Below, one piece after another: positions 14,987 through 21,294 of a stretch of DNA of 30,972 bases. The translations under genes and the position numbers were made by a program. The notes below the pieces were generated by a model that saw only the letters and a program-made list of their open reading frames with translations, was not told the DNA's origin and did not search any database. The stretch is from assembly GCA_043735365.1 (NCBI GenBank), contig JAYTEJ010000101.1, forward strand, positions 1 through 30,972. Reading direction: 5' to 3'. Origin of the DNA: Acidobacteriota bacterium (GTDB lineage: Bacteria; Acidobacteriota; Vicinamibacteria; Vicinamibacterales; 2-12-FULL-66-21). Every line of letters starts with the position of its first letter. The stretch's first letter is position 1.

Positions 14987-15288
14987 TCGTAGGCGAGCGA
15001 CCGCGCGGCCGACACGGTGAAGTGGCCTCCGAGCGACTGGTGCGACGGATGCGCCAGATAGGCCGTCAGCCCGGCGGCATCGTCGAACTCGACGATCGCG
15101 GCGAACTCGTAGTCGTCGCGCATCATCTGCTCGTAACCCGGCAGGCCGTGCCGGATGCGCTTCCCGACCTTGAAGCGCCGGATGGTGGGAATGTCCGCCG
15201 CGGCGGCGGTGAGCGCTTCCAGCAGGCTGCGCCGATCGTCGGGCGTCAGCTCAGGCCGGGGGCTGAAGAGGATGACGTGGGCGATCAC
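14941..15288 (-). CDS. Dabb-family (stress-responsive alpha/beta barrel) protein
   Basis: MIAHVILF...IPTIRRFKVG...YEFAAIVEFDDAAGLTAYLAHPSH. GTG start overlaps the upstream stop. Confidence 0.85.
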   Translation of the reverse strand: MIAHVILFSPRPELTPDDRRSLLEALTAAAADIPTIRRFKVGKRIRHGLPGYEQMMRDDYEFAAIVEFDDAAGLTAYLAHPSHQSLGGHFTVSAARSLAYDYEMGEAAEASALVD

Positions 15289-16535
15289 CGCCCCTGGCCC
15301 CCGCCGCCGCCTCGGCCGCCGCCGCGCGGCGGGCGCGGCGGAAAGCGGCCGGGACCTCCCGGTGGACGGCCCGATCCCGGGCGCCCGTCTCCAGGAGGAC
15401 GCTCACGGCTTCTATCGCCTGATGGTGGACGGTCCGATGGTGGACGGTCCGACCGCGGCCTGTCGGCATCGGCCTGGCGATCCTTCGACCACGGACGCGG
15501 CCCCGGCGGGCGATCCTTCGACCACGGACGCGCGGTGGGCGGCCGATCCTTGGACCAGGGCCGCGGCGACGCCGGCCGGTCCTTGGTCCACGGTCCTGAT
15601 CGCGACGGCCGCCCTGAGCTGCTGTCGCCAAACGACGAGCCCTCGCGCCCGCCGCCGGTTGAAGAGGCCGGTGCTTCCCACGGCTTCCGCGGACCGCCCG
15701 CGGGTGGACGGCTCCAGGGCTTCGGGTGTCCACCCGCCGGCTTGCCGCCGTCTGCCTGATCCCGCCTCCACGGCGGCTTGGCACCGTGCTGGTCGTCGCG
15801 CCGCCACGGCGGCTTGCCGGTGCGAGTCTCGTCCCGCTTCCATGCCGGCTTGGCGCCGCGCTCGCCTTCGGGTTTCCACGCCGGTTTGGCGCCACTCTCG
15901 TGGTCGCGATTCCCGGCAGGGGTGTCGCCCCCGGCCTGATCCCGCCGCCACGGCGGCTTGCCGGTGCGAGTCTCGTCCCGCTTCCATGCCGGCCTGGCGG
16001 CGCGCTCGCCGTCGAGCTTCCCGGCCGGTGTGTCGCCACCCTCGCGGTTGCGTTTCCAGGGCGGTTTGCCGGCGCGGGCGTTGTCTCGCTGCCGGCGCGG
16101 CGTCCCTTCACCGGCAGCCCGCGGCGGTCGGTCCGGCGCGGGCGGCGCGCCTTCGGGCGGCGCCTCGTCGCGCGGCGTCGCCGGACGCTCGCGATGCAGA
16201 TTCTCGGCGAAGCGGCGCCGCTTCTCGTCGCGCGGGATCTTGAAACGATCGCGCGGGTCCTTGTGCTCCCCGCCCGGCCGCCACTCCTTGCCGCGGCGGT
16301 CGCCCGAAGGAGGCCGCCGCTCGCCCATCGGCGGCCGGCGCCGCGCCGCTGCGTCGTTCCGCTCGGCCTCCTGCGACTCCCAGAGACGGCCGCGCGCGAA
16401 CCACTTCATCACCGCATCGGGATGCCGGGCCTGCAGCTGCTTCAGCGTCGGCAACAGCTCTTCCTGCTCGGCGGCGCGGAACGCCGTGGGCTTGTCGTCG
16501 ACGATGATGGTCCAGTAATTGTGCCGGGGAGGCAT
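15285..16535 (-). CDS. Hypothetical 416 aa protein: small N-terminal domain plus long R/P/G/D-rich disordered tail with 13 Trp-centred repeats
   Basis: ATG 16535 (MPPRHNYWTIIVD) lies 8 nt after the activator stop, and the stop overlaps the Dabb start. Repeats KPPW(K/R)R, (K/R)PAWK and RPWSKDRP. Confidence 0.8.
   Translation of the reverse strand: MPPRHNYWTIIVDDKPTAFRAAEQEELLPTLKQLQARHPDAVMKWFARGRLWESQEAERNDAAARRRPPMGERRPPSGDRRGKEWRPGGEHKDPRDRFKIPRDEKRRRFAENLHRERPATPRDEAPPEGAPPAPDRPPRAAGEGTPRRQRDNARAGKPPWKRNREGGDTPAGKLDGERAARPAWKRDETRTGKPPWRRDQAGGDTPAGNRDHESGAKPAWKPEGERGAKPAWKRDETRTGKPPWRRDDQHGAKPPWRRDQADGGKPAGGHPKPWSRPPAGGPRKPWEAPASSTGGGREGSSFGDSSSGRPSRSGPWTKDRPASPRPWSKDRPPTARPWSKDRPPGPRPWSKDRQADADRPRSDRPPSDRPPSGDRSRERPPGDGRPGSGRPPGGPGRFPPRPPRGGGRGGGGGQGR
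15799..15993. repeat. Exact 51-nt direct repeat, 144 nt apart, inside the Trp-repeat gene
   Basis: cgccgccacggcggcttgccggtgcgagtctcgtcccgcttccatgccggc at 15799-15849 and 15943-15993, encoding PAWKRDETRTGKPPWRR on the minus strand. Confidence 0.9.
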
Positions 16536-16543
16536 ATGGACGA

Positions 16544-17947
16544 TTATGGCAGCTTTACGGCGGCGGCCGTCGGCTCGAGCCGCTTCAATTTCTCGATCAG
16601 CGTCGTCCGCTTCAGGTTCAGCAGCTTCGCGGCCTGCCGCTTGTTCCCCTGGGTCCGTTCGAGCGATCGCCGGATCAGCGACAGCTCGACCCCCTCGATA
16701 TAGCGCTCGAAATCCAGCCCTTCGTCCGGGAACCACACCGCGGCGGCATCGACCGGCGCGGCCTGCGTCTGGATGTCCGGCGGCAGGTCCTGAACGTCGA
16801 GATGCAATCGGCCGTGGTTGAACGCGAGCGCCCGCTCGACGATGTTTTCGAGCTGGCGGACGTTGCCGGGCCATGGGTAGGCCATCAACCGCCGCAGCGC
16901 GTCCTGCGAGACGGTCACGTGGCCGCGTCCTGACTCTCCCGCCAGCTTCTGGAGGAAGTGCTGGACTAGCAGCGGCACGTCCTCGCGGCGCTCGCGCAGC
17001 GCCGGCAACTGCACCGGGATGACGTTGAGCCGGTAGAAGAGATCCTCCCGGAAGCTGCCGTCGGCCACCATCCGCGACAGGTCCGAATGGGTGGCGGCGA
17101 TGATGCGCACGTCGATCTTGACGGTGTGCGAGTCGCCGACCCGCTCGAACTCCCGCTCCTGCAGCACGCGCAGCATCTTGGCCTGCAGCGCCGGGCTCAT
17201 CGTCCCTACTTCGTCGAGGAAGAGCGTCCCCTTGTGGGCCTGTTCGAGCTTGCCTTGCCGTGTCGCGATCGCCCCGGTGAAGGCGCCGCGCACGTGACCG
17301 AAGAGCTCGGCCTCGAGCAGCGTCTCTGGGATGGCGCTGCAGTTGATGGCCACGAAGCGGTTGGCGCGGCGCGGGCTGTTGTGGTGGAGCGCCCGCGCGG
17401 CGAGCTCCTTGCCGGTGCCGGTCTCGCCGGTAATCAGCACGGTGCTCGACGTCGCCGCGACGGTCTGCAGCAGCTGAAAGAGATTGCGCATCGGAGCGCT
17501 CTGTCCGACCAGTCCCTCGATGCGGTAGCGATCTTCAAGCTGCGAGCGGAGATACGCATTCTCGGACTTGAGCCGCCGTTGCTCGAGTGCCGAACGGACC
17601 ACGTGGAGGAGAGCATCGAACTGGAACGGCTTGGTGATGAAGTCGGCGGCCCCCTGCTTGATGGCCTCGACGGCGTCCTTCACCGTGCCGTAGCCGGTGA
17701 TGACGATCGGGATGATCTCCGGGTAGCGCTCGAGCGCCGCGTCGACGACCTGGCGGCCGTCGATGCCCGGCAGGCGGAGATCGGTGATGAGGATGTCGAA
17801 GGCGAACTCGGCCAGGCGCTGCAGCGCCGCTTCCCCGCTGCCGGCCTGTTCGACCACGAAGCCGTGATCCGCCAGGCGCTCGGCGATGGCCTCGCGCAGC
17901 GCGGCCTCGTCGTCCACTATCAACAGATGCTTGGGATCTTCAGCCAT
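16544..17947 (-). CDS. Sigma54-dependent response regulator (REC-AAA+-Fis HTH), FleQ/FlrA-like C-terminus
   Basis: REC LLIVDDE...LITDLRLP...TKPF; [49 protein letters not shown]; [19 protein letters not shown]. Confidence 0.95.
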
Positions 17948-17958
17948 GGAGGCAGATG

Positions 17959-17972
17959 GTCGGTATTTTGAC
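17959..17972. promoter_or_regulatory. Candidate bEBP binding box upstream of the activator gene (autoregulation)
   Basis: GTCGGTATTTTGAC. Its reverse complement GTCAAAATACCGAC matches the 18610-18623 box at 12/14 positions. Lies 11 nt from the ATG. Confidence 0.5.
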
Positions 17973-18046
17973 ACCCCCAGGGTCCGGCGGTCAACGAGAG
18001 CCGCGGCGCAGGGCCAGAATGAGGGCGCGCGCGTGTGCGCGGCAGC

Positions 18047-18075
18047 CTACAGCGGGGCGCCCACCCGTCCGATAA
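18047..18075 (+). promoter_or_regulatory. Candidate sigma28 promoter for the HTH/mini-DHp pair
   Basis: CTACAG-N15-TCCGATAA. The -10 is 7/8 to GCCGATAA; the -35 is TACA versus TAAA, with a spacer 1 nt longer than the enteric consensus. Confidence 0.45.
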
Positions 18076-18141
18076 CATTCTCGAACTTCGAATGCGGTAA
18101 CCCGTTCCGGTCCGGTTCATCCGGGCGTGGCGATGAGAGCG

Positions 18142-18342
18142 ATGATCAACGATCGCAAGACGATTTCGATCATGAAGGCGTGCGAGATGGTCGGGGTGAG
18201 CCGACGCACGATCTACAACTGGATTGCCGGCGGCAAGGTCGAGTATGTGCGTACGGCCGGCGGATCCGTTCGCATCTTCGTCGATACCCTCTGGCGGGAC
18301 CCCGGCCGGGCCGGGGAGCTGACCGGCAAAGAAGCGTCATGA
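18142..18342 (+). CDS. 66 aa HTH_17/MerR-like DNA-binding protein, BldC-like
   Basis: ISIMKACEMVGVSRRTIYNWIAGGKVEYVRTAGGSVRIF follows the W-x3-GK-x4-RT-x-GG-x2-R pattern. Confidence 0.88.
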   Translation: MINDRKTISIMKACEMVGVSRRTIYNWIAGGKVEYVRTAGGSVRIFVDTLWRDPGRAGELTGKEAS

Positions 18343-18578
18343 GGGGGGCCACCGATGCCCACTCCGCGAGGATGCCCGTGAGCGAACGGCCGGATCTGGG
18401 CTTGCTGTTTCACCGGCTGAACAACCAGTTGGGGATCATCCTGGCCAACGCCGAGCTGCTCGAGGCCAAGGCGGCCGACGAGATGACGCGGGCGCGCGCC
18501 TCGCAGGTGGTCGCGAGCGTGCTCGACGCCATGGCCACCGCGCGCGAAGTCCGCCTCCATTCGAAGCTCCCGAAGTAG
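18339..18578 (+). CDS. Stand-alone HisKA/DHp-like mini protein (68-79 aa)
   Basis: LLFHRLNNQLGIILANAELL is an H-box (His codon 18411), followed by a second helix and a stop, with no ATPase domain. ATGA overlap with the HTH gene; alternative ATG at 18372. Confidence 0.8.
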   Translation: MRGATDAHSARMPVSERPDLGLLFHRLNNQLGIILANAELLEAKAADEMTRARASQVVASVLDAMATAREVRLHSKLPK

Positions 18579-18579
18579 C

Positions 18580-18623
18580 GTCAAGGTTTTGGCAACACAT
18601 GCCACGCTCGTCAAAATATTGAC
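18580..18623. promoter_or_regulatory. Tandem candidate enhancer (bEBP UAS) boxes
   Basis: GTCAAGGTTTTGGC (18580-93) and GTCAAAATATTGAC (18610-23, inside the perfect inverted repeat TCGTCAA-N4-TTGACGA), 30 bp apart. Confidence 0.6.
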
Positions 18624-18706: not shown

Positions 18707-18756
18707 CGCTGAGTCTGCGTCTGCGGGGAAGGTTCGTCTTTTCATCGCTTTGTGTC

Positions 18757-18772
18757 TGGTACTCCCGTTGCG
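18757..18772 (+). promoter_or_regulatory. Sigma54 (-24/-12) promoter of the sigma28 gene
   Basis: TGGTAC-TCCCG-TTGCG has exact GG-N10-GC spacing and ends 55 nt before the ATG. Confidence 0.75.
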
Positions 18773-18827: not shown

Positions 18828-19739
18828 ATGCAGCGTCAGCCCCTTGCCGCCCATCATCAGGACCGAATTGCCGCCGGACTGCCATTCGTGGAGTCGCTGG
18901 CGCGTCGGGTGGCCGCCTCGATGCCGCATTCAATCGAGCTCGGAGACCTGGTGCAGGACGGCATGATCGGCCTCATCGACGCCGCCTGCCGCTTCGACGA
19001 AGCCCGCGGCATCAAGTTCGAGACCTTCGCCGAGCGGCGCGTCCGCGGGGCAATGATCGACGCGCTGCGCCGCGACGCCTGGCCGCGCGGCGTCCGCCGC
19101 CAGCGGCGTGAGCTCGAAGCGGCGCGCGAAGCGCTGCGCCGCGAGCTCGGCGCCGAGCCCTCACTCGCCGATCTGGCCAAGCGCGTCGGTTCCGACGAGG
19201 CGCGGCTCGGCCGCACTATCGTCCGCATTCACACCATCGAGTCGACGTCGCCGATGTCGGCCGCTGAGCACGTCGACCACGCCTCGCTTCCCGCGGTCCT
19301 CGTCCCCTGCGAGCCGCCGACGCCCGACAAGGCCTACGAACAGCAGGAAGTACGCGACCGCATGCGCGCCGCGATCGCCTCGCTGCCGCCGCGCGAGCGC
19401 CGGGTGATCGCGCTCTATTACTATGCGGAAGCGACGATGAAGGAAATCGGGGCGGAGATTGGCGTCAACGAGTCGCGGGTGTCGCAGCTGCACGCCCGCG
19501 CGGTGCAGCGGTTGAAGAAGGCGCTTGGCGCCGAGTGCTTCGCCGAGGCGCCGATGAGCCCGGCGATTCTCTCGTTCCAGGCCACCATCCGCCGCCGCCG
19601 CATGGCCAAGGCCGATCTGCCGCAGGGGCCCGGCGTGGTGTTGCAGTACCGCGCGCCGGAAGCGACGGCGCCGGTGCGGCGGCAGACGGCGGCGTCGCGC
19701 CGGCCCGCGGCCGTCGGCGCGGTCGCAGCCGCGCGCTGA
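18828..19739 (+). CDS. fliA: FliA/WhiG-family (sigma28) RNA polymerase sigma factor with C-terminal extension
   Basis: DLVQDGMIGLIDA, FETFAERRVRGAMIDALR, WPRGVRR, EATMKEIGAEIGVNESRVSQLH. GGAGG SD before ATG 18828. Confidence 0.9.
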   Translation: MQRQPLAAHHQDRIAAGLPFVESLARRVAASMPHSIELGDLVQDGMIGLIDAACRFDEARGIKFETFAERRVRGAMIDALRRDAWPRGVRRQRRELEAAREALRRELGAEPSLADLAKRVGSDEARLGRTIVRIHTIESTSPMSAAEHVDHASLPAVLVPCEPPTPDKAYEQQEVRDRMRAAIASLPPRERRVIALYYYAEATMKEIGAEIGVNESRVSQLHARAVQRLKKALGAECFAEAPMSPAILSFQATIRRRRMAKADLPQGPGVVLQYRAPEATAPVRRQTAASRRPAAVGAVAAAR

Positions 19740-19749
19740 TCACCGCGCA

Positions 19750-21294
<1,545 letters not shown>

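Follow-up and report, generated by a model that had tools for sequence, protein, structure and literature searches.

Spo0B of Bacillus is a phosphotransferase of the dimerisation and histidine phosphotransfer (DHp) type, which passes phosphate between receiver (REC) domains without autophosphorylating. ChpT of Caulobacter (PMC3433190) and PhyT of Sphingomonas (PMC5898713) are likewise DHp-type phosphotransferases that shuttle phosphate between RECs and do not autophosphorylate. What the three have in common is a kinase-derived DHp hairpin with a phosphorylatable His, serving pathways that are hybrid or have no histidine phosphotransfer (HPt) protein; at 190–250 aa they also keep a C-terminal domain resembling the catalytic and ATP-binding (CA) domain of kinases. 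This dead ATPase domain is retained in all of them, which has left it unclear whether the hairpin alone can suffice in nature for specific REC docking and phosphotransfer. Our subject is a 79-aa protein, henceforth mini-DHp, encoded on a stretch of 30,972 nt (positions 1–30,972 of contig JAYTEJ010000101.1, assembly GCA_043735365.1; referred to as the window) from an Acidobacteriota bacterium of the order Vicinamibacterales, which stops after helix 2 of such a hairpin. As far as can be judged from its sequence it combines, as Spo0B, ChpT and PhyT do, a His-bearing DHp with the lack of an autokinase, and among known proteins it would work most like one of these three.

The reading that we favour, with slightly less than even confidence, is that mini-DHp is a kinase-less DHp dimer that exchanges phosphoryl groups through His25 with the RECs encoded around it, as feedback and not as an obligatory relay. 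More tentatively, and with the odds leaning against it, it may be the first natural DHp-only phosphotransferase or phosphatase, i.e. a hairpin dimer of ~60 residues doing the whole job of Spo0B or ChpT, or that of the phosphatase half of a HisKA kinase. On this view it would have arisen within the sigma-54/sigma-28 hierarchy of acidobacterial flagella and been kept, together with that hierarchy, in the non-flagellated Vicinamibacterales, where the cascade has seemingly been rewired so as to serve a type IV filament operon. A full-text search of a library of papers returned no description of a natural free-standing or DHp-only protein, and nothing relevant on signalling in Vicinamibacter. A conserved, single-copy protein of this kind would provide a minimal natural system, with the likely partners, a hybrid kinase and a bacterial enhancer-binding protein (bEBP), encoded alongside.

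Other small helical regulators resemble mini-DHp less. HPt proteins (ShpA, HptB, Ypd1) are also small, all-helical and His-bearing and also serve hybrid kinases, but they are monomeric four-helix bundles of a different family, whose profile (PF01627) gave no match to mini-DHp at E≤1; the model of the latter has two helices only. Spo0E-family phosphatases and the KinA inhibitor Sda are helical hairpins of 46–85 aa that act as late or checkpoint brakes on phosphorylated RECs or on kinase DHps. They share size class and hairpin with mini-DHp but have no H-box or conserved His, and no sequence kinship with it was detected (no Pfam match, E≤1).

A conserved two-helix protein and its family

Mini-DHp had been described in an earlier note, made from the letters of the window, as a two-helix protein with an intact stop and no catalytic domain, and this description holds. 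A TAG follows residue 79, no HATPase_c domain comes after the hairpin, and an AlphaFold2 model built with 47 homologues contains the hairpin only (mean predicted local distance difference test score, pLDDT, 85; above 90 over residues 20–75, low confidence over residues 1–19). The H-box reads F-H-R-L-N-N-Q-L and contains His25 (codon CAC, 18411-18413) and, at H+4, Asn29 (18423-18425). An alternative in-frame ATG at 18372 would yield a protein of 68 aa; given that residues 1–11 are moderately conserved among homologues, ≥90% of which have A4 and D6, and that a purine-rich stretch lies 5' of the ATG at 18339, the 79-aa form is the more likely one.

This first ATG shares the tetranucleotide ATGA with the TGA (18340-18342) of the upstream gene. 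The coupling pointed out earlier is therefore real, but outside the window it is seen only in the closest relative (L033), and the partner is not a signalling gene but one for a helix-turn-helix (HTH) protein of excisionase/BldC type. At the other loci the first aligned residue of the mini-DHp homologue lies from 5 to ~90 nt past the HTH stop, and at L038 the match runs back over the HTH end. A consensus scan found no transcription terminator 3' of the mini-DHp gene. No RNA run was found to contain the genome of the window; soil RNA libraries contain low-depth fragments of the HTH and mini-DHp genes of relatives, which are not proof of transcription.

A word-indexed search recovered 6664 homologues, which among the matches listed are ~65–86 aa long and, where named, come from Acidobacteriota/Vicinamibacterales. 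A separate, exhaustive HMMER search over 1.8 billion representatives gave 278 clusters at 50% identity, and the best 150 of the 278 span 56–182 aa, with no full-length kinase among them. Homologues are thus short throughout the matches listed (≤182 aa), and we rejected the idea that mini-DHp is a truncated kinase. Across 47 diverse members, down to ~40% identity, nine columns are invariant: H25, L27, N29, L31, G32, E39, L40, A54 and A64. The H-box His and the H+4 Asn singled out from the window are both in this set; as for the H+1 acid, it is replaced by Arg in most members, as in the window, but others have Gln, Glu or Thr, so that the position is better described as not consistently acidic. 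Willett and Kirby are reported to have linked, in 2012, the acid at H+1 to autokinase activity and the Thr or Asn at H+4 to phosphatase activity; an H+1 that is not consistently acidic agrees with the lack of an ATPase domain.

The gene also behaves as a gene. Its GC content by codon position (0.68/0.46/0.92) matches that of the real genes of the window, and dN/dS by the NG86 method comes to 0.175 in the nearest pair, the median being 0.39, far from the value near 1 that the earlier note had named as evidence against it; these ratios are overestimates, since synonymous sites are constrained at a GC content of 92% in third codon positions. Mini-DHp is real, and purifying selection acts on it. 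Of 61 genomes sampled from the order (Vicinamibacterales by the names of the homologues), 55 carry one copy.

The relationship to histidine kinases comes from profiles and alignments. By BLASTP, residues 25–51 align without gaps to residues 162–188 of the hybrid kinase encoded in the same module (52% identity over 27 residues), which places His25 on the kinase His162. A profile comparison by hhalign between the mini-DHp family and the DHp of this kinase, the latter from a 21-genome alignment, again sets His on His (93.5%, E 2.3e-7). The likeness to the kinase DHp (residues ~150–215) consists of the lengths of helix 1 and the loop and of the H-x-L-N-N-x-L box; only 43 columns align, the two proteins diverge in helix 2 and in the lower stretch of helix 1, the sensor, CA and REC domains are missing from mini-DHp, and its H+1 Arg stands against a Glu in the kinase. 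The family profile also matches, weakly but repeatedly, dozens of open reading frames (ORFs) of 300–1350 aa across the phylum, the hybrid kinase of the window included, which are presumably kinases. The best fold match in the PDB is the GacS DHp in the RetS-GacS complex (chain 7n0e_A; target-normalised TM-score 0.82, root-mean-square deviation 1.5 Å, E 0.37, 19% identity), followed by the DHps of ERS1, ZraS and a LOV-kinase, and the structural neighbours in the Atlas are kinase DHps as well. Judged by these comparisons, mini-DHp is DHp-derived, yet it stands outside Pfam HisKA once the cut-off set for that family is applied. Pfam and NCBIfam offered nothing usable, the sole match to mini-DHp being a Rho-binding antiterminator (E 0.054) that we take as chance. 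An RsiG-type c-di-GMP (cyclic di-GMP) anti-sigma was considered and dropped: the motif of that family (E-x3-S-x2-R-x3-Q-x3-D) is absent from helix 2 by eye.

The same profile finds proteins of 81–83 aa in another acidobacterial class, which belong to a small, distant subfamily (8 clusters) of H-box hairpin proteins of 80–105 aa. These keep the whole hairpin and the motif H-R/K-L-R-N-x-L-G, with the equivalents of His25 and Asn29 retained at ~25% identity, and when the two subfamilies are compared by hhalign, 71 columns align with 96.6% and E 6e-10. Their context is flagellar in all six cases examined (L054-L056, L072-L074). One genome (G045) has a mini-fliA-flgM operon beside a methyl-accepting chemotaxis protein gene, and the other arrangements are flgD/flgE-mini, mini-fliL-fliN/O-fliP-...-flhA and mini-fliF-fliH-fliI-fliJ; no HTH gene adjoins the mini genes of this subfamily. 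The flagellated relatives possess a true FlgM. A bEBP 56% identical to that of the module occurs in the genomes of two of three flagellated relatives, on other contigs, and no clear orthologue of the kinase stands out among the dozens of paralogues in three such genomes.

The five-gene module and its promoters

Mini-DHp lies in a module of five genes (Table 1) that runs bEBP (-), HTH, mini-DHp and sigma factor (all +), hybrid kinase (-). This order and orientation were kept at all 20 loci from relatives; tblastn picked up the HTH gene 5' of the mini-DHp gene in 19 of the 20, and the other four genes were present in every one. The HTH protein matches Pfam HTH_17 (3.3e-8) and TIGR01764 'excise' (4.6e-9), and HTH_BldC below the cut-off (8.9e-5). 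The hybrid kinase is most similar to kinases of the CckA and EspC types, which act through relays. Its REC reads F-V-T-G-D at beta-4, by eye an incomplete FATGUY-type Rec-inter signature (signature: PMC9981736).

An orthologue of the sigma gene (E 1e-90 or better) is present in 57 of the 61 genomes of the order, and across this sample it and mini-DHp tend to occur together; in three of the 61 both are missing, and one further absence of mini-DHp is due to a contig edge. The genome to which the window belongs (91.5% complete, 637 contigs) gave no match to Hpt (PF01627), FlhA or the sigma-54 DNA-binding domain. Among five complete or near-complete relatives sigma-54 was found in all and FlhA in none; HPt (PF01627) was absent from three of the five and in the other two occurred only inside ORFs of 740–790 aa, and FlgM, searched for in three of the five, all of which keep the sigma factor, was found in none of them. 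Since FlhA, FlgM and a conventional HPt were not found in the genomes searched, the Vicinamibacterales studied here would therefore be non-flagellated bacteria that have retained a FliA-type sigma factor and have no conventional HPt for the hybrid kinase.

Promoter analysis over 21 loci (the window and 20 relatives) suggests how the module is ordered in time. Between the bEBP and HTH genes, on the strand of the latter, a sigma-28-type element, TA[CA]A or TAAT followed after ~16–17 nt by CCGATA, is found in 21 of 21 loci, while the pattern TA[ACT]A-N16/17-CCGATA[ACG] has only four matches in the whole genome. A sigma-54-type element, TGG[CT]A[CT]-N5-TTGC, follows the mini-DHp stop and precedes the sigma gene in 20 of the 21 loci. 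As this conserved element falls inside the ORF listed from a TTG at 18750, that TTG cannot be the true start, and the sigma gene probably begins at the ATG at 18828, which is preceded by GGAGGA. One or two repeats of the form GTCAA-N4-TTGAC lie ~100–180 bp 5' of the sigma-54 promoter in 19 of the 21 loci, ~30 bp apart where paired. Sites of bEBPs are usually placed in this way upstream of a sigma-54 promoter, and the repeats are candidate binding sites for the bEBP of the module.

With a putative sigma-54 promoter before the sigma gene and a putative sigma-28-type promoter before the HTH/mini-DHp operon, the predicted order of expression is therefore kinase and bEBP, sigma-54 promoter, FliA-type sigma, sigma-28-type promoter, and then the HTH protein and mini-DHp, so that mini-DHp would be in the last tier of the cascade. 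The layout is that of the flagellar cascades of FlgS-FlgR or FlrB-FlrC with FlgM/sigma-28, in which a kinase and a REC-bEBP act on a sigma-54 promoter, this on a FliA-type sigma and this on a late gene with possible feedback; the Vicinamibacterales genomes searched, however, have no FlhA or FlgM, and the late product is a DHp hairpin and not an anti-sigma factor. In sequence terms the module looks like a flagellar-type hierarchy that has outlived the flagellum, and it exposes a complete and compact three-tier circuit in a very abundant, hardly studied order of soil bacteria.

Two of the other sigma-28-type sites in the genome of the window (G000) were examined in their context. One (contig C530:613) lies just 5' of an operon of T2SSF (PilC/GspF) and T2SSE (PilB/MshE) genes (L069 660-1904 and 1920-2999), and the FliA/WhiG-like sigma of these non-flagellated bacteria may thus drive a type IV filament system. 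The second (contig C8:5671) precedes a gene for a 165-aa protein (L070 746-1243) with no Pfam match, whose N-terminus is by eye hydrophobic and signal-peptide-like.

Table 1. Features of the module in the window, with predicted promoter and repeat elements.
Feature	Coordinates	Strand	Remarks
NtrC-type bEBP gene	16544-17974	-	REC, sigma-54 AAA+, Fis HTH; divergent from HTH/mini-DHp operon
Putative sigma-28-type promoter of HTH/mini-DHp operon	18048-18075	+	TACA-N17-CCGATAA
Excisionase/BldC-type HTH gene	18127-18342	+	71 aa from GTG 18127; likelier 66 aa from ATG 18142
Mini-DHp gene	18339-18578	+	79 aa, TAG stop; residues 1-19 disordered, helix 1 = 20-44, helix 2 = 48-75
Two inverted repeats	18580-18593, 18610-18623		GTCAA-N4-TTGAC/TTGGC; ~30 bp apart, right after mini-DHp stop
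Putative sigma-54-type promoter of sigma gene	18757-18771	+	TGGTAC-N5-TTGC
FliA/WhiG-family sigma factor gene	18828-19739	+	303 aa; TIGR02479 2.7e-59, above cut-off
Hybrid kinase gene	19750-21294	-	PAS-HisKA-HATPase_c-REC, no HPt; convergent with sigma gene; H-box His162

Possible mechanism and competing explanations

In the favoured mechanism mini-DHp would not be produced until the kinase and the activator have fired. Like any DHp it would pair into a four-helix bundle, and the dimer would dock the REC of the NtrC-type activator, that of the hybrid kinase, or both; His25, helped by Asn29, would then swap phosphoryl groups with the REC Asp without ATP. The feedback would most likely consist in removing phosphoryl groups from the phosphorylated REC, by acting as a sink for reverse transfer or as a phosphatase, or else in re-routing them from one REC to the other. 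We only infer that mini-DHp dimerises and docks RECs, that His25 is phosphorylated, and which way the phosphoryl groups move. An exchange directed at RECs is favoured because His25 and Asn29 are invariant, H+1 is not consistently acidic and the surface of helix 1 is close to frozen: below the His, positions G32, I/V33, A36, N/H37 and L40 hardly change. In work on HK853-RR468 and EnvZ these positions are reported to contact the REC and to be the seat of phosphatase or transfer chemistry. The combination of invariant His25 and Asn29, the state of H+1 and the frozen helix 1 is hard to explain by mere helix mimicry. Covariation between mini-DHp columns and the two RECs over 21 loci gave top pairs that are noise from single sequences, the helix-1 contact positions hardly varying.

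Several observations weigh against the feedback reading. The DHp identity proposed in the earlier note stands by profile comparison but is invisible to Pfam, where HisKA (PF00512) has no match to mini-DHp even at E≤1, let alone at its curated threshold; PDB sequences searched by profile returned only chance matches with E above 1, with no similarity to Spo0B, ChpT or PhyT; and the fold matches all have E above 0.3, a two-helix hairpin being generic. Positions that contact the REC in other kinases differ from the neighbouring kinase, for example H+11, H+12 and H+15, where mini-DHp has T/W/R against A/N/L. A complex prediction with two copies of mini-DHp, the two RECs and the sigma factor scored a median of 0.43 against 0.33 for the best control (sigma replaced) and reported no interface; it is rated 'no support', comes from a design outside the calibration of the tool and is used here as evidence for neither side. 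In one genus (G399, G415) mini-DHp has been lost while the kinase, bEBP, HTH and sigma genes are kept, so the module can do without it; in G399 its place beside the HTH and sigma genes is taken by a 454-aa ORF (L061 6297-7661) that by eye resembles an IS256-like transposase and lies between the two. Finally, at three genome loci of the distant subfamily tblastn found neither a hybrid kinase nor a bEBP in the 6 kb around mini-DHp, and because this subfamily sits in flagellar clusters, the oldest conserved link is to the sigma-28/flagellar regulon and not to these RECs.

The earlier note had proposed a relay, a phosphatase or a dominant-negative inhibitor. An obligatory forward relay would run from kinase His162 to its own REC, to His25 of mini-DHp and on to the bEBP REC, in place of the missing HPt. 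We consider it unlikely, even though much of the evidence suits it. The hybrid kinase has no HPt and PF01627 was not found in its own genome or in three of the five complete relatives, a context that fits a ChpT/Spo0B-like role; the nearest kinases, of CckA and EspC type, use relays; the His is invariant, H+1 is not consistently acidic and a CA domain is lacking; and the genes of both REC proteins stay syntenic with mini-DHp at 20 of 20 loci. The part of the earlier ChpT/Spo0B-like proposal that survives is the DHp homology, with His25 on His162, whereas a position in the last tier disfavours an obligatory step. The sigma-28-type promoter would put mini-DHp downstream of the same activator that it is supposed to phosphorylate, and such a relay could not start without basal expression. 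Since mini-DHp would be made after the activator fires, and since one genus dropped it and kept the rest of the module, feedback is favoured over the relay; the three distant-subfamily loci with no kinase or bEBP alongside also count against the latter, and the complex prediction was not supportive.

Quite unlikely, in our estimate, is that mini-DHp poisons the kinase by forming a mixed four-helix bundle with its DHp and so blocking autophosphorylation, as a late negative feedback with no need for phosphorylation of His25. RetS-GacS (PDB 7n0e) is a precedent for regulation of one DHp by another through direct helix-bundle contact, and its GacS chain is the best structural match; helix 1 and the loop equal those of the neighbouring kinase in length, with 52% identity around the His, and late expression would suit a shut-off. 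RetS, however, is a large, multi-domain, kinase-like protein unlike mini-DHp, and the match, at E = 0.37, reflects generic hairpin geometry. Helix 2 and the lower helix 1 are unlike those of the kinase, only 43 columns being alignable, and a mimic acting by dimerisation needs no invariant His and H+4 Asn across subfamilies that are ~25% identical.

Improbable is that mini-DHp is a small helical regulator, anti-sigma-like or a co-regulator, which would pair with the sigma-28-type factor or with the co-translated HTH protein and whose H-box is a relic. In both subfamilies a FliA-type sigma gene does come directly 3' of the mini-DHp gene (G045 has it as mini-fliA-flgM), FlgM was not found in three complete genomes of Vicinamibacterales with the sigma factor, a sigma-28-type promoter precedes mini-DHp as it does flgM in flagellar systems, and translational coupling ties mini-DHp to the HTH gene. 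Yet neither the FlgM profile (PF04316) nor any Pfam anti-sigma family matches mini-DHp at E≤1, the flagellated relatives carry a true FlgM besides, the distant subfamily has no adjoining HTH gene, and a relic H-box would not remain invariant; the complex score barely dropped when the sigma factor was swapped for an unrelated protein (0.43 vs 0.33), which according to the tool is not countable as evidence. Last, a non-functional mini-DHp, either a chance ORF in GC-rich DNA (which does hold many long spurious ORFs) or a kinase remnant with, as observed, no Pfam domain, has a vanishingly small probability and is already refuted by the conservation data, namely thousands of homologues, of the same length among those listed and with invariant columns, single-copy occurrence in 55 of 61 genomes, gene-like GC by codon position and a dN/dS of 0.18–0.39.

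Other features of the window and of related loci

The remaining genes of the window are housekeeping genes, among them those for ATP synthase, Mfd, SurA and Dus. An ORF on the minus strand (15285-16874) would encode a repetitive protein of 529 aa, rich in Pro, Arg and Gly and with no Pfam match; in its listed extent it shares ~330 nt with the 3' end of the bEBP gene, and similar ORFs occur there in some relatives. At one related locus (L062; contig C8 of G098) the usual adjacency is broken, as ~8.7 kb are inserted between the sigma gene and the HTH/mini-DHp operon.

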